A program made the translations under genes and the position numbers. This document shows, piece after piece, positions 30,558 through 55,813 of a stretch of 64,000 nt of DNA (position 1 is the stretch's first letter; each line of letters begins with the position of its first letter). Under the pieces are notes generated by a model. The model searched no databases. It saw only the letters and a list, made by a program, of their open reading frames with translations, and was not told the DNA's origin. Origin of the DNA: a virus (Duplodnaviria; Heunggongvirae; Uroviricota; Caudoviricetes); the IMG/VR virus record IMGVR_UViG_3300044675_001501, positions 1 to 64,000 of that record; one strand, given 5' to 3'.

Positions 30558-33500
30558 TTATGCTTGTGATTCAGTCCAAGACAGACGGCAAGAAGCAGCG
30601 AACGTAGCAGCAGCAGTAACGTCAGAAGCTAGACCAATGTATCTCATACGTAGAGTCAATACGTCTGGACCGTCAGGGAATACACCGTTACCGCCCATAA
30701 TAGAGTTACCAAGAGTTGCAATTTCACGTAGGTCAATAGAGGTCAATGCTTGAGCTCTGTTGTTTGGTGTTGTCAACTGGTTTCCAGGTGGAACACGGAA
30801 CGAGAAGATAACAGAACCTTGGTCAATTGTGTCAGAAATGTTATGGTAAACAACCTGACTCAATGAAGGAGCAGTAACACGCTTCCAATCCAAGTTATCC
30901 AAGTCAGCATTCAGAACCAGAGACAATTCAATCTCGTGGGTTGAAAGAACGTCAAGAGCTTTCAAGTTCAATTGCATGCGGTTAATAATTTCTCTTTCTC
31001 CAAGTAATCCTGGAATACCATTATCAACAGAAGGCGATAGACGTAAAGACAATAGAGGAATTGTTTTAGTCAAATCAACAGCCTGTGAAACTGTATATGT
31101 AGTATTTGTCGCTTGGATAGAAGAAGGTCTTGCGTTAACAACCAATAAGTTTTTAAGAATATTAGATGTTGGAGAAACTCTGACCTGACGCAAATATGGT
31201 TGACTACCGATAGATGAGTTGGTTGGGTTTGCAGTTAATGTACCAGCAACAATACCATTTCCTGATATACCAGAATTAGCATTAATAGAAAAATATGTAT
31301 CTGCATGAGTAGGAATTTCAATAGCAAAACCAATTTCACCAATCAGCTTACCGCCATTGTTATAAGCATACCATTTTCCTAGTTCGAATGCGTTACCAGC
31401 TGTAACTCCACCAGCTGCGGCAAGACTTGGTGCTACTGCGGTACAAACAAAACTTGTTCCAACGTTGTTGTTTGCTGCTCCATATGAAGTCCAAGTTGTT
31501 GATCCTGCCGTATTAATTGTATAAGAACGACCGATAACTAAATTGTTTGCTGTAAAGGTTTGAGATACTGATGCTTGTGTTCCACCAGTAACGCTAATTG
31601 TGCCAGAAGTACCAGTAGAAGTACGAATCTGGTTAGAAGTAGCGGAGAACAAGTATGCTTTATCGTCATCGAAACCACCGTCCATAATAACGGAAGTACC
31701 CCAGTGTGCAAGTTTAGGTATAAAGGAAGGAGAAACGCCAGTATCAACCTCATAGCGAGCTGGCAGGTTACCCGAACGTAGGTACGCTTCTGTTTCTAAG
31801 TTGTTGTGGACAATTTGGTGTACGTATCTAACAACACCATCAGTAGTTTTAAATCCAAAACGAACTTTACCAGCGCCATACCAAGAATAGTCCATGTAAG
31901 CCATCTGAATCTTACGAATATCTAAAGTATATCCTGTTGGACCACTTCCATTACATACATCTAAATTCCAGCTTGATTGTGGAACTCTAATCTCATTAGT
32001 CTTACTTACTACAACATTAGTTGATGTAGAACCTCTATATGATGGTTGAACATAGAACGTATTGTTGTTTGGAATTTCAATAACTTTATATGATTGTCCT
32101 TTAATTACAACATAATCTCCAGAGACTAATTCTGTTACGTATTGTGTTCCTGTTCCTACAATTTGATTGCTGTTAAAAATAACACTTGCAGTTCCACCTA
32201 GCTGAACTGTAGAATTTCTTCTGCATACGCTAAGAGTCGAACCATTATATTCAAAGAACATACCATTTTGATCATCAAATAAACCACAACGAACTGTTGC
32301 GTTATTCCAAGAATTTACGTAGAATTGTGGGCGACCGCTGGAAACGTTGCTATATGGGAAATTCAAACTAATTCTAAATGAATAATCATCTATAATGTCA
32401 TAAATTGTGAACGATCCATTATAGGTAGATCCAGTATCCCCAGAAATAGTAATGTCTAGACCAGCAGTACATCTGTGAGGAACACGAGTAGTTACTGTTG
32501 CATAGTAGTTACTATTACCTGTAACTGAGTTAATAGGTACTGAAGGGCTGAAGTTAATAGCAAACGAAACTTGAATGCCTTTACCTGACTGATAACGGAA
32601 ATACTTACGAGTCTGACGAACAACACGTGCGTTCGGAGAATCTGTTGAGATTAATTCAACACCACCGTCATATGGTCTATGTAACGCTGATGAGTCAGCA
32701 CGCAACAATAGACTAGAAGTAACATCATAGGTGTTTGTTGCTGGGAATCCGTGACAGTTTATTGCGTTTACAGTAGAAGCTGTTGTTGTTGCTGGGATAG
32801 TTGCAGTCGCAGCAGCATTAGTTTGCATAGTAACAACAATAGAAGTGCTATTGCTACCAGCATTAGTTTTGACAATTAATGGAATATTGTCAATCTGAGT
32901 TGTATTACCAGTTCCTGTTAAAACAATGACAGAGCCAGCAGGGAATGGGCAAGGCATTGGGAAAGCGACAGTAATATCTGGGCTGGCGCTTGTTAGTGAT
33001 ATAGAAGTTACTGGCAATTTATATTGTTCATTAATTGGGATAGTATCAACTAAGTTTAACACAGTGCGTGAGTTGACTGTGCTAATTAGAGAAACACCAG
33101 TATTTCCAGGAACAATTAAAGAAACAGTGTGAACACCTGAACCACCAGAAGCAACGATCAAGTTAGTCCCATTTACTGCATCATTATAGGTAGGAGCTAA
33201 GTTGAAGTCGGCAGCTGACGCCCATCTTACATAGTAGATACCACCGTTAATTAGACCAGTTGGTGCAGCAACAGTAGAGTTCCAGCGTACAGACATGCCT
33301 GTCAACATACCGTGCGCAGCACTAGTAAATGTTGAAGAAACGAAAGTTGTTGTTTTTGCAGTGTAAACTGCTGGGTAATTCCAATAGAAGTTATCGCCAG
33401 ATTTAAACGCAGTTGAGAAGTTTGTGTTATTACCAACTACCTTAGTTGTTCCTGCTGCTAGTGCAATAGTACCAGCACCAACAATAGAACCAACAACAGA

Positions 33501-36500
33501 AGCTGCTTCAAATTGATGCGTTCCAGAACCCAAGAAGTTTCCGCTGTTTAAGTTAATTGGAACAACAATAGGATTAACAGCATCTGCTACTGTCGCAGCA
33601 AGTCTGAACCAATCTTCTGTTATTTTAATAATGTAGTATGTTGTATTACTAATTAATGGACCGAATGGTGTTCCTGATGCTGTATATAATACAGGAGTTC
33701 CTGTAATCAATTTGTGTCCGACGCTATAAATCGCATTCCAGTTAAAGTCGACATTAATCTGAGGATTAATACCTAGAACACGTTTAGGAACAACAGCATT
33801 GTTAGGATTATTAAGGGTAAATTTATTTGTTGCGCCACCAGGAGCATTATTTGCGACAGTATACAACCCATCAATGGCTCCAGTAGTAACCCCAGTAGTC
33901 ATTGTGTGGGATGCGCCAGTTCCTTCTGCTGTTATATCAACAACAGTTGATTGACGTAAAGAACCAGTTCCAGAAGGAGTTCCAACAAACTTCACACGAT
34001 CATCTGCGGTATTGTTAATCGCACCAAGTTGAGTCCAGTACAATGTACATGTCGTAGTAGAATCTGCACGAACGTAGTAGAACGCACCATTGGTTAGTCC
34101 TGTAGCTGGTGTTGCTGACAAATATTGAACTAGACGACCAGTAGTAAACCCATGAGTTCCAGTTGTAATAACACCAGTCGCAGTCGCTAAGTTGGTAGTA
34201 TTCTGCGTAAATGAAATCGCAGCAGTATCCCAACCTGTTAACGTATCAGCTAACTGGAATCTATCGGTAGTAGAATTGAAAACGAATTTAGTTGATCCGC
34301 TTGTTAGTCCTCCAACTTCAGAGCCACCACCTGTTGCGTATGTTACAGAGGTTCCATTGTTTAATCCATGATTTTGTTTATAGATGGTGTCGCCAGCGGT
34401 ATTCGATGCTCTTCTTGTGAAGTAATGATTATTTCCAACAAAAGATAGTTTTGCGCCGAGGAAATAAATTCTACCAACATCTGTGCCATTATTATATGCA
34501 GCAAAAGCAGAAGTGTTTAGAGGCTCAGTAGCTTCAGCATCTTTGTAAATTTCTAGTGTTGTAGATGTTGCTGATTTAGCATAATATATCTTATGATCCC
34601 ATAGAGCATACCAAGGAGAAGCTGGTGCAGCAAAACCTTGGAAGTGAATAGGAACAACTGCGCCAACAGGGACGCTGTGCGCTGCAGTCGTAGCAACCGC
34701 AGTAGAGTTACTGGTGAATGCAGTAATCGCAAGGATCTGAGGGTTCAATGCTGGAATTAGCTGAGAAGCAGTACCGTTTGTTGACACTGCTCCATTGGTT
34801 CCACTATTAGCATATGTGAACGTATTAAATGTAGCTTGTAAAATTACTGCAGTTGCATTGTTAAAGGTTGTGTCAGTAACAGAAGCAATAGCAACTTGTG
34901 TTCCAATTTTGAAACCATGAGGAACAGCAGTAGTAACTGTAGCTACGTTATTATCTCTACGAATAGAAGCAATATTTACGCTGTTCGATGGGAATGTATA
35001 TGTTATTGAATTTGTCTCACCAACAGTAATCGCTGTAATAGATCCTCGTTTTAGTGTAGTAGAAGGAATCTTTGTGATTTCAAAGTAATCAGTAATTTGT
35101 GAGCCAACAAGAGGGAAATATGAGTTATCTTTAGGGTGAGCCCAAACACTCTGCAACCAGCTTGTTCCAATAGCAAGGTTATCTTCATCGCGAACTCCAT
35201 GTCCTGTATCAATAACAACCTTCGCAGTAGATATTGTAGAGAATGTTCCTGGAAGACCTCCTGGAGTCATAACATAAACAATAACACTTAGTGCTGGCGC
35301 AGTTCCTGATACGGCTCCAACTCTAATATCATAAGCATTGAAACGAGAATCTCCGATATATGTTAACTCCGCAGTGCCATCAGAAACCGCACCACTTGTG
35401 TGAGAAGGCGCTGATGTGCTGGTTGTTCCAGCAACAGAAACATTGTATAAATTATTATTCCAGAAAACTTTTTGGTTTAGTGTTAACGCAGTATTTGGAC
35501 CCCATGGTGTACCCATTTTTAGTGGTTGGTTATTTGCGTCAAAGAACTTGATTAAACCGCCATGGTGTGCAACGTTGGCTAAAGCGCTACCTCCTGCGAT
35601 ACGTGCTGCTGAAGTAAACGTGAATGTATTAGCACCAGCAGTAATAGTTGGAACTACAATGTTTGCTGTAGTTGACCATGCAGAAGATGGATACGAAATC
35701 GTCATCGATGTTCCACCAGAAGCCACAGCTGCAGTTTTCCAATTCCAATATGCGGTGTCAAATGTTGTGTTAACATTTGTTAGTGTCTTATCTGCAAATG
35801 CGTTAGCTGTATCTAAATGCGCACCAGCAGCGCTTGTTACTGCCAGAGCAGATCCAGCATCAGAAAGAAGTTTAAATCTATCTGTGGTTGCAGAGTCAAC
35901 AATAAAGTATGATCTATTTGTTAAACCAGTAGGAACAGAAGCTGCGGCTTGGGTTCCACCTGATGCCTCCCAGAAAACCAATTCTCCGTTTTGGAATCCG
36001 TGAGACTTAGAATACCAAGATCTACCAGTAGACCATGGTTGTGTATAGTTAATAGGAACAACATATCCATCAACAGAAGTGCCACTAAGAGTTAAATTAG
36101 ATCCACTAACAGTTGTTGACAAATTGAATGTTAGAATATCTGAACTTGCTGAACCATAGAGATCAAAACCAACATTATTGGTTTGAACTGCAAGAGAATT
36201 GTTTAATGGATTTTTAAGTTTAATTGTTAAAGTTCTAGTTGTTGTTCCTGTGTGGTTGGTTATCATACCAACTGGATTTACTGTAGAACCTGGGAATTCA
36301 CCAAAAGGGCTAACCTCATATGATTGATACAATCCAGTATTATTTCTTAAAACAATCTGGTGTCCTTTCGGAGTATTTCTTAGAGGAGTTCCTGTGAACA
36401 GTGCGCCAGCGTTTGATGCGGTAGCAAGAGTGAATGTTGCACCACCTTGCGTAGAGCTTAAAGTGATATCTGCGCTACTTTCGATAGTTTTAACATAATA

Positions 36501-39500
36501 CGTTGTGCCAGAAACAATATTACCGAAAGATGCACCTACAGTGAATGGTTGATTAACTGCAAGACCTTGAGTTGTATGTAGCGTTAGTCTATTAGTTCCA
36601 GCTGTGGTGTTTGTTGCAATAGTTGTTACGTTTGTAGCGCCAAGGAATCCTGACATGACGTCAGTCTTAACTACTGGTAATGGTCCATACGAATAGCAAG
36701 AAACACGCTGAGCTGAAGTAGTAGATAGAGTTGCTAAAGCCCCACCACGAGTAGTAGAAACTGTAAGTGTTGTTCCAGAAAGAACGCTTACAATGTAATA
36801 AAGTTGTCCAGAAGATAATCCACCAACGCTGGCATCAACTTCAAACATCTGACCAGCTTTCATACCAGTAGTGCTTGACACAGTAATTACGTTCGTTGTT
36901 ACAGCAGTGCCAGTAATTGTAGTAAATGCACCCTCATCAAAAGTTAATGATAATGTTGCAGCGTCTTGAGCCGCAAGAGCGATGGTGCCGATTGCGCCAT
37001 CAAGTTCTCCATTCGGACCACTATAACTAGAAAAATTTGCATTACCTGGAGCACTGTTAGATCCATTGGTTGCGCCGAAGGGTAAGGTTACTTGTGATTG
37101 GTGCGTGTCAGAATTTGGATTTCTGGCATACACAATGTTTGGCAATTGAGCTGGTGTCCAGTTATTAGTGAATGCTGTAGTTCCACCAATAGCAGTAGTC
37201 CATACAGCTAAAGGTTGGTTATCTAAAATCGCAGAATTGAGAGTATCTAAACACTGGACAAACATTGTTCCAGAAGCTGTTTGATAGTCATGAACTCTAG
37301 CTGCAGCCATAAAGGAATGTGGACCAAATCTATCTGTAGCAAGAGGGAATCTAGATGCAGCTGCTTGTACACCGAAGTTAACTGAAAGAGCAGTTCTTCT
37401 GTTTGCTTGTGTAACTAATACGCACTGTGTTGTCGAATCTGTAATAATAGTGCCGATTTGAGCAGTAAACGAAGCAGCAGTAGCAGTACCCATTGCTACT
37501 GGATTTGTAAACTGTTTAGGTGTAGCACTAGAATCGTTTACATCAGTAGTTGGTGTATCAGAAATTGTAATCTGAGTGCCAGACAAAACGTCTTTGACGT
37601 AGTATGTAGTATTTCCAAGAATACCAGCAAGGCTACCGTTAGCAGTACCAGTACCAGATGCTGCTCCATTAGTTGCGGCAGTGAATGTTGAACCAACAGC
37701 ATAAGTTACGCCAGATGTTCCAGCAATAGTATTCCACTGAGGTTGTGTAGTTGTTCCAAGAGCAGCAATAGTGTATTGCTGTCCTACAGTAAAATGACCT
37801 GCAGATACTGTTGGACCTTGAATGTGAGTGCTTAGATATGGGGTTACTGCAGTTCCTGGCACGAAACGAATTGCCATACCTGGAGTCATGTTTGCAGTAG
37901 CTGCTACAGTAACAATATTTCTCTCAGCGTTTAGGGAGTTACCGCTGATCACTGGAATGTTCAAGTAGCGATTAATTGTATAAGTACCAGCTGCTCCTGT
38001 ACCAGTGCCTCTTGCAGTAATGTAAGTTCCTGCTGGTACATGTCCATTAGTATCTGACAGATATGCTCCAAGGTCGAATGCAGTACCTGTTACAGTAGCG
38101 TTAACTGTCAATACGTTTCCTGAAATAGAGAACGAGGTTGTGCTACCTGTTTGGTTTAATGTTGCAGTGCCTGTTGTTGTGTTACCGTTATAGAATCCAG
38201 GTTTAGTTCTTACATAATAAACTGTAGGCGCAGTAATTTGCGATCCACCAATAGTAAGACCGCCATTTAGAGCACCCATGTTGTATAGGTATGGTCTATT
38301 ATCGATAAGACCATGAGAAGAAGCGAAAGTAATTACATTGGCTCTCGTTGAAGCGATGTAGTTTGTATCGTTTACACCTTTATGCTCAAGTAGATCTGCT
38401 GCGTTTTTACCCAATGTGAAAAATAAAGTTGGGCGAGATGCTCCAGCTGGGTTGAAGTTATACTTCTCAGCTGTCCATGTATATGGGTTAAATTTAGATG
38501 TGTTGTCTAGATCTAAAGAGTTTTCTGAGTAGCCGTTAGAAGATGATACGGTTTCGTTAGAAGAAGTTGTTCTGATAAACAACTGTCTCTTCCAGCTCTG
38601 CTGTGGATCTAAGAATACATCACCAGTGAATGTTGCATTAACAGCTTCGTTGTTTGGACCTCTAATACTAAAAGTTAAACTAGATAGAGAATAATTTACT
38701 AAATCTGCTTTTATTAATCTAGCATCAATTGTATCGTTTTCGCAGTCAAATGTTACTTCCCAGATTATTGTAGTATTAGTTGATCCGTCTTGAAACTCTT
38801 TACCTTCCCATCTAATTCTAAGGCTGGTAGTTGTTGTTGAAAAATAAAGTTTCTTAAGATTAAAGTCCCCAGTTAAGAAGTTAATCTTTGGAGAATATGT
38901 ATTGTTATTATCAACGCCATTCCAAGCAGCAACATCAACAGCAGGACCATTACCAATTACGCTTGTGCTATTTGTAAAGTGAATAGTCGAATTAGATGTT
39001 ACCCAAACACGGTCAAAGGTTTGGTCGAAAATTTTAAACGGCATTGATTCTGGGAATAGTACTCTGTAAACACCCTCATCAATACCAACGTTTGATGTTG
39101 TTGCATCACCATCAATAATTAATGTCATACCCAGAGTTCCTGGGTCTGTAATGCCAGAAGTTCCAAAGGTTACGTATGCTTTGTCTGTATAACCATTGTT
39201 ATCAGTAACTACAGCATCATCTGTTCTTAGTATTGCTTGGTTTTCAGTGTAAATTAAAGAAGTAACTAATGTTGAATCGAATGTAATCTGCTGCGATGTT
39301 AGGCTGTTTAGAAGAATAAATGTAGTGCCAATAGCAAATCCATGTGGACCATTGGTTGTAATTGTAATAGTAGATGGGCTTTCTCCATCTGTTGCGATCG
39401 CGCCAAGAGATTCTAACTTAAATTCAGTTCCTTGGTATAATGATGCAAGATAAATTTCTGTAGAGCTTTCTCTTACAGAACCTGTAATTGGTGATGTTCT

Positions 39501-39899: not shown

Positions 39900-39930
39900 T
39901 TTTTCTCCAATTTTCCAATAGTTTTATTAT

Positions 39931-41622: not shown

Positions 41623-41924
41623 TATACTGCCACTCCTACGACTCCAGTTGGGCTAGTGGATGTCCTAACAATTATTCCTAGAACCCCAGAAGTCACAGAA
41701 ACTACTACAGCATCTTCTTGTAGTAAATCTCCCCTTTGATACACTCTTAATGACGAGGAGCCGCCACCAGCCCCACCGCCAATTAATCCAACCGTGTTAT
41801 TTTGATTTTTGTAATACAGTTTACCGTCAGCGTAGTTGAGAGCCAACTCACCGTATTCTAAGTCTGTATTTAGTGGTATCTTTCCAACTATACTAGACTT
41901 CTTAAGTATAATTCTGTTTGCCAT
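41622..41924 (-). CDS. short protein (100 aa) carrying only the conserved fibre N-terminal module
   Basis: 'MANRIILKKSSIVGKIPLNTDLEYGELALNYADGKLYYKN' matches the N-terminus of the 719-aa protein. Confidence 0.5.
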   Translation of the reverse strand: MANRIILKKSSIVGKIPLNTDLEYGELALNYADGKLYYKNQNNTVGLIGGGAGGGSSSLRVYQRGDLLQEDAVVVSVTSGVLGIIVRTSTSPTGVVGVAV

Positions 41925-45409: not shown

Positions 45410-45418
45410 TCTAACCTC

Positions 45419-48400
45419 TTATGCCTGTGATTCTGACCAAGTAATACGAGCGGATGCTTGGAACGGAGCAGAACCATTGATAGTTGATGTATCAATTGGT
45501 GTCGCTGTAATAGTCAAGATATCTGGACCGTTAGGGAATGTTTCGTCACCGCCCAAGATCGAGTTACCTAGCTGAGCAACTTCACCAAGCTCTGCTGTTG
45601 TCTGAACTAAACTACGCTGACCAGTTGTTGCGCTAATAATAGAACCACCAGAAGCACGGAACGAGAATAACTGAATACCGTTCTTAATGGTTTCTCCTGG
45701 TGAATGTCTATAGATTTGCGACAATGAAGGAGCAGTATTATTAACGAAGTTACTGTCTGACAAATCAGAGTTCAAGAATAGTTTAATCTCAGATTCATGT
45801 GTCAATAGAACACCGCAAGAGTTTAGAGTCAGTTGCATTCTGTTAATGACATCTCGGAAACCAAGACCTCCAGTTAATCCGTTATCTACAGAAGGGGCAA
45901 GACGGATAGAAACTAGAGGAACTGGAGCAAGAGCAGAAATTGACTGATTACTTGTTCCACCACCAACAATAAAGTTTTGACCACTAGCGCCAACTCCAGT
46001 GATATTGTTTCTAAATCTTTGTGTTAATATGACTCTACTATTTGTGGTTCCTGCAACAATAGAAACAGATTTAACTAAAGTGTTTGCTGGTAAATAGAAG
46101 TTATTAAAATCATTCTGAACAGAAACACTAGAACCAACAATAAACTTAGATGAGTTAGCGTTAGTTACAAGGATAAAATCGTCTCCTCTGTTGATATTAG
46201 TGCTTGCTAATGATGCAACAATCTGAGTACCACCATTCGTTAGCGTAATAACATTAGAGTCAGCAGTAAACAAGTATGCTTTATCGTCATCGAAACGACC
46301 ATCCATAATAACAGAAGTACCCCAGTGGAATAGTTGTGGAGAGAATGTTGGTTCGCCGAATGTTACAACTTCGTAACGTGCTGGGATATTACCAGAACGC
46401 ATATATGCTTCAACGAATTCATTGTTGTGGATAAACTCATGGAAGTAGCGAACTTCACCACGCTGGTCTTTAACACCAAAGCGAATCTTACCAGCACCAT
46501 ACCAAGAGTAGTCAATGTATACCATCTGAATCTTATTAAGGTCTAGGACATAACCGCTTCTTCCGTTTCCGTCTGCCTTATCAAGAGTCCATTGATTTTG
46601 CGGTACTTTTGTATCAATTGTTTTGGTTCCAATAATGTTGGTTAGAGTTGATCCGCGATATTCTGGTTGAATATACATTTGAGTATCACTATCAATTCCA
46701 ATAATTTTGTAAGACATACCACGAATAACAACATATTCTCCAACACTTAGTTGCGTTGTAAATTTAGTTTTTTCTCCAGTGATCAAAGAAGAACGATATG
46801 TTGCATTAATTCTTCCAGAAATCTGCTGGATAGAACTTCTTCTAACGCAATATAACTGCTGTCCATCATACTCAAAGAACATACCGTTTTGAGTGTCAAA
46901 TAAACCACAGCGAACCGCAGCGTCTTTCCAAGAAACTAAGTTAAACTTAGGGAATCCATAAGCAACCGAAGATCCATTCTGTCTGTAGATAGGTAGTCTA
47001 ATTTGTTTTATTACAGTTCCAGAATTCTCTGTTATGTTTACACCCGCTTGAGTATAAGTGAATGTTGTTGAATCAACAACTGTTACTGGAGCAGAGAATC
47101 CATTGAAGTTTGCGCCAACACCAGTGCCAGAGATAGAGATATAATTTCCTGTTACAAGACCGTGACTTGATGAAGTAACAACTGTTACAGTGTCATTTAA
47201 TCTTGAGATAGAAGAAATTCCAACTGTTGGTGAACTTCCTACAACAGTGTTAGACAATGTCAAAACTTTAGTATTTGTATTTACATCAGTAATGATTGTG
47301 TTTGCTGGAATTGTTATACCGCCATATGTTCCTGCTTTTATTGTTTTTCCAACTGCAACACCATTCAAATTCCAAACTGAACCGATAGTATTAGTTCCAT
47401 TTGTCACTGTTCCAAATAATGGTGTGTCTTCATAAACATATGTAAAGGTATACTCGTCAACAACTTCTAAAATATCAAATTGACCATTATAACCATTATG
47501 CCCAGAAGCAACTGTTGCTTCTGAAACTCTTATTCTATTAGTTGTTCCTGGTTTAAATCCATGAGGCGAGTCAACCTTAATCTTAGCAATATTCTCATTA
47601 GATGTAAGCTCTTCGCAATCTGTTGGTGGGTTAAAGTTAATAGCAATAGAAACTTGAATACCCTTACCAGATTGATAGCGGAAATACTTACGAGTCTGAC
47701 GAACTACGCTAGAGTCAGGAACTAGACCAGTAGTCATAGTAACTCCACCATCGAATGGACGATGAGCAGTAGTAGCATTAGACTTAACGTAAATGTTAGT
47801 GTTAATAAAGTATTCAAAAACTGGTTGAATAGAAATTGCATTACCAGCAGCAAAACTTGAATTTAAGTATTCACTAATTGTCAATATGTTACCATTAATT
47901 GCAGTAATTCTGGTATTTGCTTTAAATCTTCCGTTACTATCGAATAGGTAGTAACCAACAGCTAAATCAGCAGCATTGTTTACTGTTATAGTTTGAGATC
48001 CAGTTGTTACTGCTGCGCCAGCTGATACTGTTCTATCAATAATCAAATTAACCTTAACAATTGCGTCAGGAGTAATAGGAGATCTCAACTTAATTGAAGT
48101 ATCAGACTTAACAGAAGAAATGATATAGTTAAAGATTTTACCTGGATTAGCTGCAGTATAGAAACGTAGAACGTCACCACCCTTAAAGTTTGTTAAGAAC
48201 TTAGTTCCGATACCTGTAATAATGTCAGATTCTTCAGTAACAACTACTGTACCCAATCCTCTAGTTAAACCAACAATAGAGTAAGTATCAAAGCTCTGAG
48301 ATCCATTAGTTCCAGCAGTCAAATCGATTGTTGTTGGAGTTGGAGAAACAGCCTCATCGAATGTTGGCGCCAACTTAACAAAGTTAGGGTCAACAACAAC

Positions 48401-51400
48401 AGCATAATATGTCTGACCAGAAACAAGAGCAGTTTGTGTTACACCATCTTTGTCAACATAAGGAGCAGTTGCGATTGGTGTAGCTGATCCAGGTCTATAG
48501 ATTAGAGAAGTTCCATCTCTGAACTTATGGTTCTGAATTCTAATGTAGTCTTGTGTTGTGTTTACTTCAGTGTTTGTAAACGACTTAGTGTTGAATGGAA
48601 TGTTCGAACTTGTCGCAACAACAAAAGTTGTTGGATCAGGAATATCCTCAATAACATAAACACCATCAGCATCAGAAGCTCTAGTAAACACGTGAGTTCC
48701 ATAAGACTTAAATGCAACATTGTCGCCAAGATTCTTATTAGAACCAGTAAAGACTAGAGGTCTTGATTCAGCTGTATACGCAACAGGTAGAGGTGTAGTA
48801 AAATCAAGCCTCAATGCCCAATTGGTTGCGGCATATGGTGGAATAGAACCTAAGAATGTTCTTGGTGGTAGTCTATTAAAGTTAATGAATGTTCCACCGA
48901 ACATACCAGCATGCGTTTGGTTCAGAGTAACAGTAATGTTAGGTGCTGTTCCGCTAAACGCTGTAACATATGTGCCAACTGGGAACGGACTAAATGTAAC
49001 TCTCTGACCAGCAGTAACACCACCGTGGATATCGCTGATAGTAACTGTTGTTCCACTAACTGCAGTTACTGTTACATTTTCTGGGAAGTTAGCCTCTGGT
49101 GAACTTACATATAGACCAGGAATAACAGCACCAGCAATAGTGCCAGTAATAGAAGCATTAGATAGAGCAACAGTTGGTGATGCGCCAACAGTAAAGGTGT
49201 TAAGGATTGGATCAATATCAGTGATCAACAACCCTGTTGCTGCAAGAGTACCAGTACCAGCAGTAACTGCAACAGTCATACCAGTGTTCAAACCAACCGT
49301 TGAAGGAACACGAATAATTGAAGTTGTTGGTGTGCTAGAACCAATACCTGCTGCAATAACAGTACCAGCAAGTCTAGTTGCTGGAGTATTACCAGCAGTA
49401 ATTACACCAGTTGTTGCGTTCGCAGTACCAGTAATTAGAGTTGGTTTTAGTGGGTTAGTTGTTACGATAGACTGAATAACTGTTTGTGTTGCATAGTTTG
49501 TTGCAGTCGCGAACGCACCCTGTCCACCAGTAGCTGTTGAAATTAGAGTTAGTAATTGACCAACTTTAAATCCTGTTGCGCTTGGAACATAGATATCGTT
49601 AGTTAAGTTAGTTCCTGTTCCGCTTGAAACACCAGCGATGAATCTAGCGCCAGATAGTGCAGTAGTAGGAGCATCAGTTAATACAAATCTATTGCTGTCA
49701 ATAATAGCAGCAACTCGAGTATTATTAGCAAGAGCTCCAGCACTGCTAATACCACCTGTAGTAATAGCACCAGTAGCCGTAACTTCAACTGCCATACCCT
49801 GAACTAAACCAGCAGTGCTACTTGTGTAGACCATGTTGCTGTTTAATGTCATTGTACCAGTAGCAGTTGTTAATGTCTTAACAGTACCAGCTACACCACC
49901 AGAAATAGTTTCTGAAACAGTGAAGGTAGTTGCGCTTAGGATCTGCTTAACATAGTAAACAGTATTTGTTAGGATAGTACCGAATGTTGTTCCAGTAAAT
50001 ACTACTGGGGTGTTAACTTCAATATTTGCAGTATTGCCAGAAGTTGTAATAGCATTTGTTACTGAAGAAGTTGCAGTACATGCTAGAGTGACAACTACGC
50101 TACCAGCACCAGCGATAATTCTCTGTCCAAACAATGGTGTTGATGGCGTTTGGTTAACCGTGAATGATTTTCCATCAACTGCAATAGATGTAACATAGGT
50201 AGCTACTGGAGTTGTTACTAGAACGCCAGCTGATCCTGCTACGTTAGTTGCAAGAACTGGAACCATACCAACTTGAAGACCAGTTGTGCTATCGCAGAAA
50301 ATACGATTACCAACAGAACCGAAACCACCTCTAATGATTGAGGTGTTAATTACTGGTTCATCTCCAGTTGTCGAACCAATACTACCAACACGATATGTGT
50401 CTGATGCAAAAACAGTTTCATCTAGATTGTTGTTAGCATCTTTGTATCCAACAATAAATGCAACAGAGCGATATGCTGCTGGGCTATCAGGAACAGTTCT
50501 CTTAGAAACAACAACAGAGCCTTGTGGAAGCCCAGCTGTAAATCCAGCTGTTGTAGCATTAACGTGGTGACCTTCAGTTAGAGTACCGCCACCAGTAAAG
50601 CTGTTACCCCAGAAAATATTACCACGAATATATTGCTGAGAACCAGAACCGTATGTTGTTAATGGAATAGCTGTATTACTTTGGGCATTAACCAAAGATG
50701 ATGCTAGTTGAATGTAGTTTGCATTAACTTTAATGATATAGTACAAGTTACCATTCGTTAATCCACCAATATCATTACCACCGTTGCTGAAATAGCGAAC
50801 TGGGTCGCCTGTTAGATATGGGTGTTGTGGTAGACGAATAGAACTTAGAATAGCCGAAGGTCTTCCGTCAGTGCTTGTATAAACATCATTACCAGAGTCA
50901 GCCTTGAACCCTCTAATGTTAGAGAATCCGCTAGTTCCAGCAACTGCACCAGTAGCAAGGAATACTGCACTACTATTAAATGGAACTGCTGAAGTTACAG
51001 CTGCTGCAGTCTGAACTCTATTTTCTGTATAGATGTTAGCAGTTGAGCTAACTTCGAAAGTATTACCTTCACCAGCAGTAGCTGCAAAAGTTGTAGTTGA
51101 TCTATTACCATCAACATACATATTTACCGCTAGTCCAGTATTTGACTTAACAGTAAAAGTATTAGTGTTTGCAGTAGCAGTAGCTGCAGCAACAGTTGAT
51201 AGGTTAGGTGTTGCTTGTGTTACTTCTTGACCTGCTTGAATCTTAAAGAATGTATAAGATCCAGCAGTAGTAGTCGCAGTATGTGGGGCTGTCAACTCAA
51301 TTTGAGTTGGAGAAAGAATTCTCTGAATTCTAGCGTCTAGATTAATACCAGCGCCAACAACTGGCATACCTGGTTTCAATTCTAATGTGTCAGGAACAAT

Positions 51401-54400
51401 CAAAGTGTATTGATTGATTAAACCTGCATTAGCAGCTAGGGTCTTAGTAACATTAGTGATTTGGGTTGCAGTAGCAACTGTTGCCGTTGTCGATACAGCA
51501 CCAACTATTCCTGCCGCAACAGCTACGTTATTTGCTCCACTATTAGCATCATGCCCAACTGAAGATAGAAGATCAGCTTGAGCAGAGGTTAGAGCCATAA
51601 CAACAATAGAATCTACGTCTATTGTTGCAGACTCATCTGATCCAGTTTGAGCGAAAGTGAACGTATTAGTTCCAGTTGTTGTAATTGTAACAGGAGATGA
51701 AGTATTAAACGAAGTTGTTGGCAACCCCTGAATCATTACAGTTTGTGAATTATTGTAACCATGAGCTTCTTCTGTTGTAATTGTAACAATATTAGAAGCT
51801 CTTACTGCGCTCTGAATATCTCTTGGCTTGAACAAGATTCTTGCTGTTCTAATGTTACTTCCTGTTACTGCAGAAACTTTTGACTCGAATGGAAGAACGC
51901 TACTAGACTTAACTAGATGATTTGTAACAATACCACCACCATTAGCAGAAGGAGTCTTCTTGTCTAATAGTCCATCAATTGCTTTCAAGGTAGTAAATGT
52001 TTTACCAGCAGGAACTGGGGTAATAATTGCACGTCTAGCTGTTACGTTAGCAAAGTCAACATATTTGTAAGCAATACCATACGTTACACCAGTCGCAGCG
52101 TTTTGAGTTACTGCTGGAGCAGGATTAGTAAATACTGGAATGTTAACTGTAATTGTAGAAGGGGAAGCATTAATTACTGGAGTTGCTGGAACAGTAGCAA
52201 CAGTCCAGAATCCATTCATATAAGGAACTGGATTATCACGAATAATAATCGAATCACCAACAGCCAAACTGTGGTTGGTGTTAAAGGTAATCGTCATTGT
52301 TGACGCATTAGCAGTTTTACTTACAGCAGTTATTCCTAGTTCTTGAGTTGTTGTTGAAACTCTAAAGTTGTCAGTATTAACTGCTTTAACGAAGTATTCA
52401 AAGGTGTTTCTCAAACCGTCAACAATTGGAGCACCAGCTGAGTCATAAATGACTGTTTGGTTTGCTAAGAATCCATGATTTGGTTTATAAACAGTGTTAG
52501 CTGTTGCTGAATACTTAACACCAGTAAAGGTGTGAGATCCAGTGCCAAATCCTCTTAGATCAATTAAAGTTCCTGTTGCTCTGTCTTTTAGTTTAAAGCG
52601 GTCGTCAGAAACTTTTTCAACTAGATAACCATTAGAACCAGCAGCAGCCAAACTTGTTGCGCTTGGGCTCTGAATTGCAGTATCTGTTGCAGTATATAAA
52701 ATGTAATCGTTATTTAAGAATCCATGATTAGGGATATAGATAGAATCTGATTCTGCTAAAAGAACAATAGGTGTAATGAACACCTCACCATTAGTTCTAG
52801 CTCCAGGTGTAACTAGAGGATTTGCTGGTCCTGTTGAGAATGTTAAATCAAATCCAGAATTTGTTACAGTTCTAACAAAATAAATTGTGTGAGCAGTATT
52901 ATTAGTTGTTGCATCAGTAGCATTTGTTACTGTAGTATTGGCAAGAGCGCCATTAGCTGTATTATTTGTTACAATAAACGCATCACCAGCAGCAAGACCA
53001 TAAGGGACTCCGCTAACCGATGCATTTAATGTCATAACACTTCCAGCAGAACTTACGAATCTGAAGGATCTTGTTGCTACAAACTTTCTACCCTCAAGAA
53101 TAGTTCCAGTGTTTAGAACAACCCTAGCATTAGAGTTTGTCTGGCTGTATACTGTAGGTAGAGCTGTTGCTAATAAAGCAAAATTATCATCGTCGATTGG
53201 ATAAACGAAATAATTTCTAGATGCTGTTAAAGCAGCTGGGAATGTGTTTCCTGGTGGATTATAGAACCATAGAGCATCACCAAGAGCATATCCGTGACTT
53301 GGTACATTAAAGCAAGAAACTCTAATATTTGGCTGTAGGTTTGCTGCTGTTCCAGGATTGTCAGAGAATGTAATCTTCTGACCATGAGTAATGTTAGCGT
53401 TAATGTTAGCGCTAATTTGAACAGTAACAAAGTTATTTACATCTGGCGCACCAACTGTGTTAACTGTAGCATTGGTTGGGATACCAGTTCCGCTAACAAC
53501 CATTCCAGGATAAATCTGTTTATCGTATAGAGTAGCTTTAAATGTCAACTGGTTTGTCGAACCGCTTGCTCTTGTGCCGCCAGAAAAACCAGAAAGATCA
53601 AGAGCTCTTGTTTCCTGATAAGCGAGAGCACTAATAGATGAATTTCTATCATATGCCCAACCAGCATCAACAACAGAAATTGACGATACACTAGAACCTG
53701 TTACTGTTGTTGAGAACACTGCTGGAGCTGCTGAAAATCTTTGAGCAGTTCCGACGCCACCAGAGGTATATGTAATTACGTTGGTGTTATTTAATGCATC
53801 ATTTCTAGTTGGGTGTAACTGAATTGTTGTTGCTGATAGATTTCTAACATATAAACTTAAACTACTTGCGATGAATACATTTCCTGGCAAGAATCTACCA
53901 GTAGCGTTGTTAAAACAACCAGAACCAATATTAGTAAACTTGATGAAGTTTCCACGTAGAGCATCTGAGTATGTAGCAGCAAGTCTAAAATTATCCGCAT
54001 CAATTCTAATTACAAAATACGGAGTAGAATCAGTTAGACCACCAATAACTGCTAGTGCTGGAGAGTTAGCGTTAACTGTTCCAGAAGCAGTTACAACTCT
54101 TCTGTAATAAACTCTATCTCCAGTAACAAATCCGTGATCATCAGTTCTGATGATGCTTGTTTGAGAAGAGATAGAAGCTGCGTACCAAGCAGTAGTAGCA
54201 TTAAAACTAATACCTGTTGAAAGGTTATAAGGGAACTCAATAACAATTGTTAAGATATTGTTTTGAATTTCATAAGAAGAAATTCTAGTTCCTTCTGGTG
54301 TTAATAATGTAGGAGCTGTTGTAGTCGTAGCGCTAATAGACCAAAGTCTTAATTCCTGACCAATTTCAATCTTACCATAATAAGATAATGGATCACAAGT

Positions 54401-55813
54401 AATTAAAGCTGTCTTTGCGCCGACGCTTGCGCCACCGAAACTAGCGCCAGTACCAAATGCAGCTGGAGAATATCCAACTTGACCATCAACAACACTTGCT
54501 TCGCCCATAAAACGACCATTAGATGCCCAGCTGTATGGATCTCTAATTACAGGTGTGCTACCGATAACTGGGTTAATATTCGCGCCTTCCATGTGATACT
54601 CGACACGATCACCAGTATTAAATGTATGAGTAGATGTAGTAATTCTACCAGCATTAGCACCAGTTCCAAGAGTAACACCACCTGCAGTAAATGTAATAGA
54701 GTTTACGTTTGCTGTTGTGCTTCCACTAAAGAATGGGACAGCAACAGGAGCACTAACATAACCTGCGCCACCATTGACAATTCTTGCTGAAGAAATTGGA
54801 GCATTTAATGTAGTGTTGATATTGCTGTTGTCGAAATATAACGTACCCTTACCAACAAATCTGTATGGGGTTACTGATGTAATTCTGTAGTCTAATACAG
54901 ATTCACCAATAGAAGTTGATGTTGTTGTTTTCTCAGTTGTTATTGTATCATCAGAATTAAAGTTTTCAATAGGGATATCTTGACGATAGATAGCAACAGT
55001 ATTGAGGAAATAGAACGGTGTATTTAAAGAGAAACCGTGTGGGAATTTAGTTTTAACAATTAGATGTGATGGGTTTAAACCATTTGTTTCAATATCAGCA
55101 ACAGTAATCTGCGAACCAAAATAGAATGCGCCTGGAATAACTGCAGTATAAACAGTAGATAGTTCTAATGTTGTTTGTGGGGAGAATGTTAACTGATATG
55201 TAAACTGACTTGTGCTGATGACAGCAGTAACAATATAACCACCCTCGAATTGAGAGTTAGCCAAACCAGTAATTTCAAATGGGGAGCCAGCAGTTAATCC
55301 ATGACTTGGAGCTGTAACTAGAACAGTTGAGGAACCTTGTGTTGACTGAACAGATGTTACTGAGATTGCATTCGCACCGTTTCTTGAATAGAATGATGGT
55401 ACATTATTAACAAGTTTCAGAGTTTCCCATTTTGTGGTTTGTAAACCATATTCAAAGTCAGTATCGATAAGATTCTCTGGCTGAGAAATACGTATCTTAG
55501 AAACTGGATCGATGAATGGATCTTCAGGGCGAATTTCTGTTGATTCATTTTCAACTAGAACCTGAAGTGTATCGGTATTTAAAACATTAAGCGCAGCTAG
55601 AGACTGTCTAAAGACAAATTTAGTTTCATGTGTATCTAAATCGTATTCTCTAGTAAGAACACCAGATCCTTCATCCGCGAAGTTATAGATAATTCTGTTT
55701 GTAGTTACATCAGTAATAAGCAATAATCTTTGCAAGAGAATATTGCCATTGATGAAAATAGCATTATTATCTCTATCAATTCTATATCCTGTTGCTAATA
55801 GTTTCTTAGCCAT
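45419..55813 (-). CDS. giant virion structural protein (3464 aa), paralogue of the gene at 30558..39899
   Basis: Uninterrupted 10.4-kb frame. It shares the N-terminal attachment motif and the C-terminal ~650-aa module (…RQTRKYFRYQSGKGIQVS…YSWYGAGK(V/I)RFG…WGTSVIMDG(G/R)FDDDKAYLF…WSESQA) with the 3113-aa protein. Confidence 0.85.
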   Translation of the reverse strand: MAKKLLATGYRIDRDNNAIFINGNILLQRLLLITDVTTNRIIYNFADEGSGVLTREYDLDTHETKFVFRQSLAALNVLNTDTLQVLVENESTEIRPEDPFIDPVSKIRISQPENLIDTDFEYGLQTTKWETLKLVNNVPSFYSRNGANAISVTSVQSTQGSSTVLVTAPSHGLTAGSPFEITGLANSQFEGGYIVTAVISTSQFTYQLTFSPQTTLELSTVYTAVIPGAFYFGSQITVADIETNGLNPSHLIVKTKFPHGFSLNTPFYFLNTVAIYRQDIPIENFNSDDTITTEKTTTSTSIGESVLDYRITSVTPYRFVGKGTLYFDNSNINTTLNAPISSARIVNGGAGYVSAPVAVPFFSGSTTANVNSITFTAGGVTLGTGANAGRITTSTHTFNTGDRVEYHMEGANINPVIGSTPVIRDPYSWASNGRFMGEASVVDGQVGYSPAAFGTGASFGGASVGAKTALITCDPLSYYGKIEIGQELRLWSISATTTTAPTLLTPEGTRISSYEIQNNILTIVIEFPYNLSTGISFNATTAWYAASISSQTSIIRTDDHGFVTGDRVYYRRVVTASGTVNANSPALAVIGGLTDSTPYFVIRIDADNFRLAATYSDALRGNFIKFTNIGSGCFNNATGRFLPGNVFIASSLSLYVRNLSATTIQLHPTRNDALNNTNVITYTSGGVGTAQRFSAAPAVFSTTVTGSSVSSISVVDAGWAYDRNSSISALAYQETRALDLSGFSGGTRASGSTNQLTFKATLYDKQIYPGMVVSGTGIPTNATVNTVGAPDVNNFVTVQISANINANITHGQKITFSDNPGTAANLQPNIRVSCFNVPSHGYALGDALWFYNPPGNTFPAALTASRNYFVYPIDDDNFALLATALPTVYSQTNSNARVVLNTGTILEGRKFVATRSFRFVSSAGSVMTLNASVSGVPYGLAAGDAFIVTNNTANGALANTTVTNATDATTNNTAHTIYFVRTVTNSGFDLTFSTGPANPLVTPGARTNGEVFITPIVLLAESDSIYIPNHGFLNNDYILYTATDTAIQSPSATSLAAAGSNGYLVEKVSDDRFKLKDRATGTLIDLRGFGTGSHTFTGVKYSATANTVYKPNHGFLANQTVIYDSAGAPIVDGLRNTFEYFVKAVNTDNFRVSTTTQELGITAVSKTANASTMTITFNTNHSLAVGDSIIIRDNPVPYMNGFWTVATVPATPVINASPSTITVNIPVFTNPAPAVTQNAATGVTYGIAYKYVDFANVTARRAIITPVPAGKTFTTLKAIDGLLDKKTPSANGGGIVTNHLVKSSSVLPFESKVSAVTGSNIRTARILFKPRDIQSAVRASNIVTITTEEAHGYNNSQTVMIQGLPTTSFNTSSPVTITTTGTNTFTFAQTGSDESATIDVDSIVVMALTSAQADLLSSVGHDANSGANNVAVAAGIVGAVSTTATVATATQITNVTKTLAANAGLINQYTLIVPDTLELKPGMPVVGAGINLDARIQRILSPTQIELTAPHTATTTAGSYTFFKIQAGQEVTQATPNLSTVAAATATANTNTFTVKSNTGLAVNMYVDGNRSTTTFAATAGEGNTFEVSSTANIYTENRVQTAAAVTSAVPFNSSAVFLATGAVAGTSGFSNIRGFKADSGNDVYTSTDGRPSAILSSIRLPQHPYLTGDPVRYFSNGGNDIGGLTNGNLYYIIKVNANYIQLASSLVNAQSNTAIPLTTYGSGSQQYIRGNIFWGNSFTGGGTLTEGHHVNATTAGFTAGLPQGSVVVSKRTVPDSPAAYRSVAFIVGYKDANNNLDETVFASDTYRVGSIGSTTGDEPVINTSIIRGGFGSVGNRIFCDSTTGLQVGMVPVLATNVAGSAGVLVTTPVATYVTSIAVDGKSFTVNQTPSTPLFGQRIIAGAGSVVVTLACTATSSVTNAITTSGNTANIEVNTPVVFTGTTFGTILTNTVYYVKQILSATTFTVSETISGGVAGTVKTLTTATGTMTLNSNMVYTSSTAGLVQGMAVEVTATGAITTGGISSAGALANNTRVAAIIDSNRFVLTDAPTTALSGARFIAGVSSGTGTNLTNDIYVPSATGFKVGQLLTLISTATGGQGAFATATNYATQTVIQSIVTTNPLKPTLITGTANATTGVITAGNTPATRLAGTVIAAGIGSSTPTTSIIRVPSTVGLNTGMTVAVTAGTGTLAATGLLITDIDPILNTFTVGASPTVALSNASITGTIAGAVIPGLYVSSPEANFPENVTVTAVSGTTVTISDIHGGVTAGQRVTFSPFPVGTYVTAFSGTAPNITVTLNQTHAGMFGGTFINFNRLPPRTFLGSIPPYAATNWALRLDFTTPLPVAYTAESRPLVFTGSNKNLGDNVAFKSYGTHVFTRASDADGVYVIEDIPDPTTFVVATSSNIPFNTKSFTNTEVNTTQDYIRIQNHKFRDGTSLIYRPGSATPIATAPYVDKDGVTQTALVSGQTYYAVVVDPNFVKLAPTFDEAVSPTPTTIDLTAGTNGSQSFDTYSIVGLTRGLGTVVVTEESDIITGIGTKFLTNFKGGDVLRFYTAANPGKIFNYIISSVKSDTSIKLRSPITPDAIVKVNLIIDRTVSAGAAVTTGSQTITVNNAADLAVGYYLFDSNGRFKANTRITAINGNILTISEYLNSSFAAGNAISIQPVFEYFINTNIYVKSNATTAHRPFDGGVTMTTGLVPDSSVVRQTRKYFRYQSGKGIQVSIAINFNPPTDCEELTSNENIAKIKVDSPHGFKPGTTNRIRVSEATVASGHNGYNGQFDILEVVDEYTFTYVYEDTPLFGTVTNGTNTIGSVWNLNGVAVGKTIKAGTYGGITIPANTIITDVNTNTKVLTLSNTVVGSSPTVGISSISRLNDTVTVVTSSSHGLVTGNYISISGTGVGANFNGFSAPVTVVDSTTFTYTQAGVNITENSGTVIKQIRLPIYRQNGSSVAYGFPKFNLVSWKDAAVRCGLFDTQNGMFFEYDGQQLYCVRRSSIQQISGRINATYRSSLITGEKTKFTTQLSVGEYVVIRGMSYKIIGIDSDTQMYIQPEYRGSTLTNIIGTKTIDTKVPQNQWTLDKADGNGRSGYVLDLNKIQMVYIDYSWYGAGKIRFGVKDQRGEVRYFHEFIHNNEFVEAYMRSGNIPARYEVVTFGEPTFSPQLFHWGTSVIMDGRFDDDKAYLFTADSNVITLTNGGTQIVASLASTNINRGDDFILVTNANSSKFIVGSSVSVQNDFNNFYLPANTLVKSVSIVAGTTNSRVILTQRFRNNITGVGASGQNFIVGGGTSNQSISALAPVPLVSIRLAPSVDNGLTGGLGFRDVINRMQLTLNSCGVLLTHESEIKLFLNSDLSDSNFVNNTAPSLSQIYRHSPGETIKNGIQLFSFRASGGSIISATTGQRSLVQTTAELGEVAQLGNSILGGDETFPNGPDILTITATPIDTSTINGSAPFQASARITWSESQA

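Follow-up and report, generated by a model that had tools for sequence, protein, structure and literature searches.

Two giant members of the S-PM2 gp175-like family in the T4-like structural block of an uncultured phage

The window that we analysed, 64,000 nt of IMG/VR record IMGVR_UViG_3300044675_001501 from a marine T4-like phage, encodes on its minus strand two very long proteins, here called A (3113 aa, 30558..39899) and B (3464 aa, 45419..55813). Both are new, stretched-out members of a large known but uncharacterised virion-protein family and not a new kind of protein: they are S-PM2 gp175-like and match the phrog_5838 profile with E=1.1e-155 (A) and E=2.2e-145 (B). On balance we lean towards the view that they are anciently diverged paralogues which would form long fibres or adhesins of the bead-on-string type, with a distal lectin-like module that binds carbohydrate.

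Two intact genes of one virion-protein family

Each of the two reading frames has a lone stop at its end, and the first-pass annotation had rightly placed both as single intact ORFs at these coordinates. It had also proposed that they are paralogues sharing an N-terminal and a C-terminal module, which BLASTP of A against B bears out. A2-200 aligns with B82-273 (39.5% identity, E=1.8e-37), A2451-3113 with B2861-3464 (39.4% identity, E=7.5e-127) and A2391-2508 with B2668-2790 (41% identity, E=1e-24), a similarity of the ends that by these alignment scores is far beyond chance. The motifs quoted in that annotation were all found in both proteins, with the correction that WNNATVRCGLFD is exact in A only and WKDAAVRCGLFD in B. 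Its remark that the genes are among the largest in phages was overstated. ORFs of 3048, 3338 and 3779 aa occur in S-PM2 alone (PMC9910659), and the family itself reaches 4358 aa, so that the size of A and B is extreme within phrog_5838 without being unique.

The S-PM2 gp175 / phrog_5838 family (equal to T4-GC 863) comprises more than 3900 representatives, and tblastn detected a homologue in 161 phage records, chiefly T4-like cyanophages in which it is labelled ‘virion structural protein’. Lengths are continuous from about 1030 to 4358 aa with a median of about 1900; members on IMG/VR contigs span 1028-3400 aa, and the representatives extend to 4358 aa, including proteins of 3432 and 3756 aa. 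All complete IMG/VR members and 96 full-length representatives consist of an N motif, a variable core and a C module. No near-identical DNA turned up in the phage collection, which marks the source phage as uncultured, and with those of HTVC008M, Melnitz and the cyanomyophages its MCP shares only ~61% identity. Just nine family loci occur in genome contigs, all in MAGs of unrelated phyla, and these are probably mis-binned viral contigs that give no usable clue to a host.

Each giant has collinear orthologues of its own. The orthologue of A, P0183 (3139 aa), is 74% identical end to end, with 65-82% in each 250-aa window, and the orthologues of B are P0264 (3432 aa) and P0267 (3756 aa), B and P0264 sharing 40-59% through the core and the canonical middle. 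The C modules of A and B are up to 55-60% identical to homologues of other viruses and 39% identical to each other, and the order B, gp9/10-like gene, ..., A, gp13 recurs on two other metagenomic contigs (L087 and L088). The idea of a recent duplication with replacement of the core can thus be set aside, and these comparisons identify A and B as old paralogues.

Domain anatomy of A and B

B begins with a beta domain (aa 1-95, 55529..55813, pLDDT 90-98), and a domain of this kind (~95 aa) is typical of phage members and missing from A and from giant-virus members in the alignment. The N motif follows at aa 102-131 in B (DPVSKIRISQPENLIDTDFEYGLQTTKWET, 55421..55510) and lies at aa 25-54 in A (DPVSKMRVSEPSNLIDTDFEYGLQSSKWET, 39738..39827), where it belongs to an N-terminal module (aa 1-236, 39192..39899) and has two FCCH-like barrels after it. 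Over 29 aligned sequences, giant-virus members among them, 20 residues of the motif are invariant. Modelled in isolation it reaches a pLDDT of only 46-59, although the neighbouring domains exceed 90. In its predicted fold the N end resembles the N-terminal regions of tailspikes. A separate family of ~150-aa proteins with the N motif (P0172 and others) was considered and rejected, because these calls are truncated genes on short contigs.

Next to the N module lies the expanded core, which covers aa 237-1842 in A (34374..39191; ~9 FCCH-like barrels and unassigned beta-rich stretches) and aa 274-2338 in B (48800..54994; ~14 FCCH-like barrels). Mapping A onto P0047, P0029 and P0035 showed that its expansion is missing from the canonical ~1225-aa members. 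Whole-protein self-BLAST was uninformative for repeats, and we used chunked BLAST and profile searches instead. With a profile of the ~75-aa FCCH-like ‘HG[LF]’ beta-barrel we located 16 barrels in A and 20 in B, distributed over N module, core and C module, compared to ~5 in the 1225-aa members and no match in 42 shuffled or reversed controls. The label FCCH-like refers to a possible kinship with Pfam E1_FCCH (PF16190). The core stretches that the barrel profile does not match show no significant similarity to one another. A second, small ‘pyocin-fibre-like’ barrel was sought with a strict regular expression as seed; this returned the known copies only, and iteration added one partial copy per protein.

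The cores had been described as unrelated low-complexity sequence, a description that does not hold. Thr, Ser, Ala, Gly and Asn are abundant along the whole of both proteins (T 14%), the composition of the core is near that of the conserved modules, and low-entropy (SEG-like) windows cover just 8.7% of it in A and 12.1% in B. The shared barrel copies and the collinear orthologues speak against unrelated cores, as does the final ~330-550 aa of each, which is homologous to the middle of the canonical members (aa 1843-2390, 32730..34373 in A; aa 2339-2667, 47813..48799 in B). Nor is the shaft ‘swapped’; it is an array of small beta-barrels, conserved and collinear inside each lineage. We calculated a dN/dS of ~0.06 for the core of A against the close relative L003 and of 0.04-0.10 for the C module, the former value indicating strong purifying selection on the cores.

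The C module spans aa 2391-3113 in A (30561..32729) and aa 2668-3464 in B (45422..47812). Its model is a curved, two-sheet beta-sandwich of the concanavalin A-like lectin/glucanase fold, predicted with confidence; a lectin or receptor-binding fold is what the first-pass annotation had suggested looking for. In A an FCCH-like barrel is inserted into the module, which also has a small barrel like that of pyocin side fibres, and in B a barrel is duplicated at 2727-2806 and 2861-2931. By family profile against PDB the small barrel matches the N-terminus of the F2-pyocin side fibre; a direct sequence search of PDB with the N or C module gave no match. Within the module of A lies one variable island (aa 2751-2930, 31110..31649) with low occupancy and a column conservation of 0.31-0.48, compared to 0.55-0.81 in its flanks, and it is partly disordered in the model (pLDDT <50 at model residues 381-446). 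Both proteins, like the complete IMG/VR members and the 96 full-length representatives, end on the consensus W(S/T/A)E(S/N/A)Q(A/S). NCBIfam gave no matches, and Pfam revealed no Peptidase_S74 or other chaperone signature in A or B. Taken together, the predicted folds are of types known from phage fibre, tailspike and carbohydrate-binding proteins, which agrees with the fibre reading of the first-pass annotation.

Gene neighbourhood and known relatives

The structural role proposed by the first-pass annotation agrees with the setting of A and B in a T4-like structural block, where they occupy the stretch from tail/baseplate to neck along with a gp9/10-like gene, gp13-gp15 and gp18-gp20. All the neighbours given with coordinates below are on the minus strand. 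Just upstream of B is a 75-aa ORF (55836..56063) with a GGTTAQR...RYN...LEVYNG motif, conserved on L088, and immediately downstream of B is a 208-aa protein (44783..45409) that matches tail-fibre and baseplate PHROGs. Its assignment as gp9/gp10-N-like rests on the L087 orthologue (55.6% identical), which reaches 33.7 bits with PF07880 (cutoff 25), while the window copy remains below the cutoff (E=0.014); none of the neighbouring genes in the window has a Pfam match at E<=0.01. Between B and A follow a 719-aa structural protein (41987..44146), kept on L087 with 71% identity, and, upstream of A, a 563-aa structural protein (39931..41622; phrog_692, phrog_6002) that is 63% identical to S-PM2p177 over its first 38 aa. 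Immediately downstream of A is the gp13-like neck protein (29802..30548; phrog_211, E=4e-42), the L087 orthologue of which has a PF26809 match. T4 itself has genes 9-12 and wac at the corresponding position, the interval from the gp9/gp10-like baseplate gene to the neck gene gp13. A T4-late-promoter-like ATAAATA (39928..39934) stands ~30 nt ahead of the start codon of A; the same heptamer precedes gp18, gp19 and gp22, and nine of its ten minus-strand copies fall outside the listed ORFs of at least 150 aa.

The nearest described relative is S-PM2 gp175 (S-PM2p175 = S-PM2d173), which has the same architecture, comes from the same phage type and is homologous over the N domain, the N motif and the C module: by BLASTP, p175 1-266 aligns with B 1-267 and p175 305-1095 with A 2394-3113. 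It differs in being single-copy and only 1095 aa long, whereas the window has two copies about three times longer. It also lies near psbA with p176 and p177, far from neck genes, whereas A and B have their place in the interval from the gp9/10-like gene to gp13. The three-gene block of p175/d173 has been described as potential adhesin components. As a virion protein gp175 is known from annotation, the basis given in the T4-GC table being ‘sequence similarity’, and we found no experiments on any member of the family in the literature. An adaptive (swept) mutation in ‘S-PM2d175’ was rejected as evidence on this family, because its coordinates fall in the adjacent gene p177.

Compared to the T4 fibres (gp12, wac fibritin, gp34-37), A and B are alike in being late structural genes of the baseplate-to-neck block and in encoding long, Thr/Ser/Gly/Asn-rich beta proteins that presumably touch the cell. 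However, the T4 fibres have trimeric beta-helical or coiled-coil shafts and variable tips, whereas A and B consist of globular barrels in a row, and it is their ends that are conserved. In Pfam and PHROG profile searches neither showed similarity to T4 gp12, gp34-37, wac or Hoc. The evolved Dit CBM2 of Lactobacillus phage J-1 (PDB 5ly8) and legume-type lectins share only 5-9% identity with the C module and belong to a different host protein. From the phi92 endosialidase, tailspikes and depolymerases A and B differ in that no beta-propeller, beta-helix catalytic domain or Peptidase_S74 C-terminus was detected in them. The ~1225-aa homologues on giant-virus (Nucleocytoviricota-like) contigs have the N motif and C module as in A and B (41-50% identity); the N-terminal beta domain is missing from them, and their barrels number only ~5. 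They adjoin Peptidase_S74 and PA14 fibre-like genes, the S74 domain lying in those neighbours and having no match in A or B. In prasinoviruses, hypervariable regions with phage-fibre and ConA-like genes have been linked to host recognition (PMC12906663), which does not imply homology to A or B.

Proposed role and alternative readings

In the model that we favour, each protein would be built from an optional N-terminal beta domain of ~95 aa (B only), the ~30-aa N motif, an array of barrels and other small beta domains, and a C module of ~700 aa. The giants may have arisen by expansion of the array just past the N module, by ~1600 aa in A and ~2060 aa in B relative to the ~1225-aa members. Both would be transcribed late, alongside other structural genes. 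The N end would anchor or oligomerise the protein on the virion, the array would set its reach (plausibly well over 100 nm), and the distal lectin-like module would bind surface carbohydrate for a first, reversible contact with the cell. Two fibres that differ in N ends, lengths and C-module islands could then serve two attachment sites and/or two ligands. All models of A and B modules are monomers, and trimerisation is outside their reach. Conserved ends that reverse the classical receptor-binding pattern, and giant-virus carriers that lack a baseplate, sit poorly with an adhesin fibre.

The first-pass annotation had held A and B to fit host-range fibres, and this part fared less well. We observed no variable C-terminal tip on a conserved anchor; variability is found in the core and one internal island, and nothing in the family is better conserved than the C module, which retains 40-50% identity with homologues on giant-virus contigs. 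Because a host-specific tip is expected to be the most variable part, we count the C module somewhat against a host-range role, and host-specific recognition by it is doubtful.

The same pattern would fit a reversed, ‘loop-out’ polarity, in which anchoring or assembly would fall to the N motif and C module as one unit, while the variable array and island contact the host; we regard this as unlikely, and it is the best placed of the alternatives. The two ends always co-occur, are the most conserved parts and persist between phages and giant viruses, and the low pLDDT of the N motif without a partner, beside flanking domains above 90, is consistent with it. Variants of such a unit would have the N motif and C module docked together, or acting as an oligomerisation core or a folding module. 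Assembly domains that are conserved at the C-terminus are familiar from other fibres, S74 intramolecular chaperones being one example. However, neither Peptidase_S74 nor another chaperone signature came up in the searches, the C module has a large size (~700 aa) and a lectin/CBM-type fold, and the N part resembles tailspike N-terminal regions.

A less probable reading takes the C module for a virion-borne endo-glycanase or lyase of GH16 or PL7 type, cutting host surface or extracellular polysaccharide like a tailspike depolymerase. Invariant Asp, Glu, His, Arg and Tyr residues are numerous in the module, and the tailspike-like N part recalls depolymerases. However, enzymes of like fold share just 5-12% identity with it, and lectins and CBMs score nearly as high. 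The CAZy signature motifs of GH16 (ExDx(x)E) and PL7 (RxExR, Q(I/V)H and YFKAGxYxQ) had no match anywhere in A or B.

With a similarly small probability, A and B could be appendages of the neck or head, of the type of whiskers, fibritin or decoration proteins, for non-specific adherence or environmental sensing, and not baseplate fibres that set host range. A lies immediately upstream of gp13/gp14, the position that wac has in T4, the strings of small beta domains bring to mind decoration proteins of the Hoc type, and conservation of the C module over viruses of unrelated hosts suggests a generic ligand. On the other hand, B adjoins the gp9/gp10-like baseplate gene, similarity to wac or Hoc is lacking, and the S-PM2 member is far from neck genes and adjoins two further putative adhesin genes. 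That the ORFs are assembly or annotation artefacts (gene fusions or non-coding low-complexity DNA), as biased composition and a gene in two pieces in L003 might suggest, is refuted by the run of N that causes the L003 break, full-length orthologues of 3139, 3142, 3432 and 3442 aa on independent contigs, the dN/dS of ~0.06 and the genuine domain repeats.

The adhesin-fibre model that we favour bears on how T4-like marine phages find their cells, an apparatus that is poorly known because recognisable T4 tail-fibre genes are lacking. Cyanomyoviruses have no wac, g10, g11, g12, g34, g35 or g37, genes presumably replaced by unknown structural proteins (PMC2984593). The family numbers thousands of members across marine and freshwater viromes and here has two expanded copies beside baseplate and neck genes, and we therefore count it as a strong candidate component of the missing apparatus. 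Copies A and B are conserved and three-fold expanded, and constructs can be taken from their anatomy: the anchor end, the FCCH-like barrel array with its capacity to expand, and the C module of lectin fold together with its single variable island. The presence of both conserved ends on giant-virus contigs suggests that adhesion modules have been exchanged between viruses of bacteria and eukaryotes. We consider it a long shot that the whole family is one cross-realm surface module, with N motif and C module folding or assembling together into a conserved glycan-binding head, common to T4-like phages and giant eukaryotic viruses, and the array of ~5 to >20 domains, in proteins of 1000-4400 aa, acting as an evolvable spacer or loop that tunes reach. 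If so, phages with two giants would have two very long tethers, capturing cells or particles via generic marine polysaccharide and not a host-specific receptor.

Giant paralogues and their cores

Both giant genes lie on the minus strand as intact single reading frames, A (30558..39899) encoding 3113 aa and B (45419..55813) encoding 3464 aa, each with one stop, at its end. By comparing A with B using BLASTP we found three regions of significant similarity: A2-200 with B82-273 (39.5% identity, E=1.8e-37), A2391-2508 with B2668-2790 (41%, E=1e-24) and A2451-3113 with B2861-3464 (39.4%, E=7.5e-127). Every motif quoted in the first-pass annotation, which had described two giant proteins sharing N- and C-terminal modules, was found in both. 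From the intact reading frames, the significant A–B regions and these motifs we conclude that the core observation is correct and the giant paralogues are real. Thr makes up 14% of both proteins, and Ser, Ala, Gly and Asn are abundant. A 195-aa plus-strand ORF (35416-36003) nested in A is probably spurious, as is a 204-aa plus-strand ORF (10212-10826) nested in a minus-strand peptidase gene.

The cores had been described as unrelated low-complexity sequence, which does not hold. Low-entropy SEG-like 12-mers account for 8.7% of the residues in the A core and 12.1% in the B core, and in both proteins the amino-acid composition of the core is nearly the same as that of the conserved modules. A profile seeded with the recurring 'HG[LF]' signature revealed a ~75-aa FCCH-like beta-barrel domain (consensus ...TITTSSNHGLAVGDTVIITASGG..GLTNGTTYYVRVISTDTFTLA....) that occurs 16 times in A and 20 times in B, in the core as well as in the N and C modules, compared to no matches in 40 composition-matched shuffles and two reversed sequences. 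These barrels occupy 39% of the core expansion in A and 48% in B; between them lie complex, beta-rich stretches of 100-270 aa, in which no repeats were detectable when they were compared with each other. The cores are structured domain arrays. Against L003, a related scaffold with 78% nucleotide identity to the window, dN/dS was 0.06 in the part of the A core present there (aa 1447-1842) and 0.04-0.10 in the C module; dS is saturated and both ratios are approximate, but constraint on core and C module is clearly strong. The A orthologue appears split in two on L003, but only because a run of N interrupts the scaffold there.

Family, size range and age of the pair

Profile searches assigned A and B to phrog_5838 'virion structural protein' (E=1e-155 and 1e-145, respectively), and both also matched phrog_1645. 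Homologues of the C module occur in 161 phage records at ~40% identity, mostly from Synechococcus and Prochlorococcus T4-like phages. The member in phage S-PM2 is S-PM2p175 (1095 aa, T4-GC 863), the last gene in the block p177-p176-p175; this protein has the N domain, the invariant N motif and the C module in common with B. At least 4100 family matches were found at 90% clustering; at 50% clustering there were 3916 representatives with E<=1e-3, 387 of them with E<=1e-30. A and B add members to a family that is already annotated and uncharacterised.

The 64 complete ORFs on IMG/VR contigs are 1028-3400 aa long with a median near 1850, and none of them lacks the N motif or the C module. The 96 full-length representatives have a median length of 1908 aa and reach 4358 aa; 16 of them have at least 2400 aa and 4 at least 3000 aa. 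When mapped onto the canonical ~1225-aa protein, A has ~1600 additional aa after the N module and a ~140-aa insert in the C module, and B has ~2060 additional aa. As the length range is continuous, A and B are extreme but not unique members, and their giant size is the upper tail of the distribution.

An orthologue of A (P0183, 3139 aa) aligns end to end with 74% identity overall (65-82% per 250-aa window), and P0184, P0185 and P0186 are more distant, collinear A orthologues. The B orthologue P0264 (3432 aa) is 75% identical at the N end, 40-52% in the core and 74-80% in the last ~460 aa; a second one, P0267, has 3756 aa. Both giants also occur, in the gene order of the window, on two metagenomic contigs, L087 (55.8 kb) and L088 (71.9 kb): B-type, 208-aa, 118- and 88-aa ORFs, 719-aa, 104/106-aa ORF, 564-aa and A-type, followed on L087 by gp13. 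The best outside homologues reach 55-60% identity in the C module, compared to 39% between A and B, which argues for an old duplication or the acquisition of one copy. Two family copies at most 10 kb apart were observed in only 3 of 80 IMG/VR loci, and a ~95-aa N-terminal beta domain present in B and most phage members is absent from the A-type proteins. Taken together, the alignments indicate that A and B are ancient, conserved paralogues.

Genomic setting

The window is a T4-like myovirus structural block, all on the minus strand. A 1045-aa ORF and a 1183-aa repeat protein (56084-59635) come first, then a 75-aa ORF (55836-56063) directly upstream of B. After B follow a 208-aa gp9/gp10-N-like protein, two small ORFs, a 719-aa structural protein, a 100-aa ORF (41622-41924), a 563-aa structural protein (39931-41622) and A; behind A lie gp13, gp14, gp15, the large terminase, gp18, gp19, gp20, the prohead protease, the scaffold protein and gp23. 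PF07880 gave a weak match to the 208-aa protein (E=0.014), whose L087 orthologue (55.6% identical) scores 33.7 bits against a curated threshold of 25. A T4-late-promoter-like ATAAATA lies ~30 nt 5' of the A start codon and likewise precedes gp18, gp19 and gp22; nine of ten minus-strand copies fall outside the listed ORFs of at least 150 aa. No near-identical phage was found in the reference collection, and the major capsid protein shows ~61% identity to its counterparts in Pelagibacter phage HTVC008M, Methylophilales phage Melnitz and cyanomyophages alike, which points to an uncultured aquatic T4-like phage as the source.

Several neighbours carry features of their own. The 75-aa ORF contains the motif GGTTAQR...G.VRYN....LEVYNG.GW, typical of fibre N-termini, and since the gene is kept at 75 aa on L088, its product may be a small, independent protein that associates with fibres or acts as an adaptor. 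The 100-aa ORF, which has conserved counterparts of 104/106 aa on L087 and L088, begins with ...LEYGELALNYADGKLYYKN..., a motif frequent at tail-fibre N-termini. The 563-aa protein shares 63% identity with the N-terminus of S-PM2p177 (phrog_6002) over its first 38 aa and differs in the remainder, which looks like a common N-terminal attachment peptide on otherwise unlike structural proteins. The gp18 sheath (24478-26670, minus strand) has an extra region (aa ~67-261) that, like the many repeats of the 1183-aa protein, matches phrog_5342, 701, 460 and 708; a mobile decoration domain appears to be common to sheath, gp14-like and baseplate-like proteins.

Putative role and occurrence in giant viruses

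The C module of A (aa 2391-3113), modelled with a 60-sequence alignment, gave an all-beta prediction (pLDDT 80.3, pTM 0.68) with model residues 381-446 disordered. Column conservation is high throughout the module except for one variable island (A 2751-2930). Its close matches in BFVD are uncultured phage proteins; at TM ~0.4 we observed proteins of Mimivirus AB-566-O17, Bodo saltans virus, Pyramimonas orientalis virus and haloarchaeal tailed viruses. With a family profile, a 62-aa barrel matched the N-terminus of the F2-pyocin side fibre (E=1e-5).

On the best-supported interpretation, A and B are putative virion surface fibres or adhesins, expressed late: the N end would anchor or oligomerise the protein, an expandable string of small beta-barrels would set fibre length and a putative distal lectin-fold module would bind carbohydrate. 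The earlier suggestion of fibres is reasonable. This interpretation fits the position beside the gp9/10-like gene and gp13 and the published view that unknown structural proteins stand in for genes missing from cyanomyoviruses, which are without wac, g10, g11, g12, g34, g35 and g37 (PMC2984593). However, compared to classical receptor-binding fibres the conservation pattern of this family is inverted, and an anchor or loop-out architecture of the two ends is a rival to the fibre arrangement. A neck or head appendage is a further rival. The two proteins might also be glycanases; neither contains GH16 or PL7 catalytic signatures. An often-cited swept Asp->Glu mutation in the S-PM2 gene 'S-PM2d175' (PMC9910659) was rejected as evidence for the family, because this gene is the neighbouring S-PM2p177 and not S-PM2p175: locus-tag numbering differs between two S-PM2 records (S-PM2p175 = S-PM2d173, S-PM2p177 = S-PM2d175; L089/LN828717.1, 122017-125550 versus 115485-118772).

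Members of ~1225 aa with both ends kept and 41-50% identity to A (P0047, P0029 and P0035) are encoded on giant-virus-like contigs of 68, 143 and 527 kb, and two IMG/VR matches are labelled GVMAG. Canonical members were located on L002, L004, L005 and L006, with the match at 10001-13700 in each. On L004 and L006 the family gene is flanked by the RNA polymerase genes Rpb1 and Rpb2, and on L002 Rpb2 alone among the polymerase genes was present within the stretch read. The L006 polymerase genes contain inteins and the L002 Rpb2 a weak Hint match; nearby are eIF-1a (L002) and Bax1-I and Fapy glycosylase (L006). Further neighbours on the giant-virus contigs are a FAD amine-oxidase-like gene and Peptidase_S74 or PA14 proteins of 1700-3000 aa. 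For prasinoviruses, phage-fibre-like, ConA-like and S74 genes are on record in the host-interaction regions of these marine giant viruses (PMC12906663). In bacterial and archaeal genomes we found only nine family loci, all in MAGs (L090-L098) from unrelated phyla (Microbacteriaceae, Methanobacteriota, Bacteroidia, Burkholderiaceae, Synechococcus, Saccharimonadales), most likely mis-binned viral contigs. The family is common to Caudoviricetes and Nucleocytoviricota-like viruses. Both ends of its proteins are conserved even in giant viruses, which have no baseplate, a pattern suggesting that the ends recognise a generic ligand or serve in assembly; their conservation across realms is the more interesting thread.
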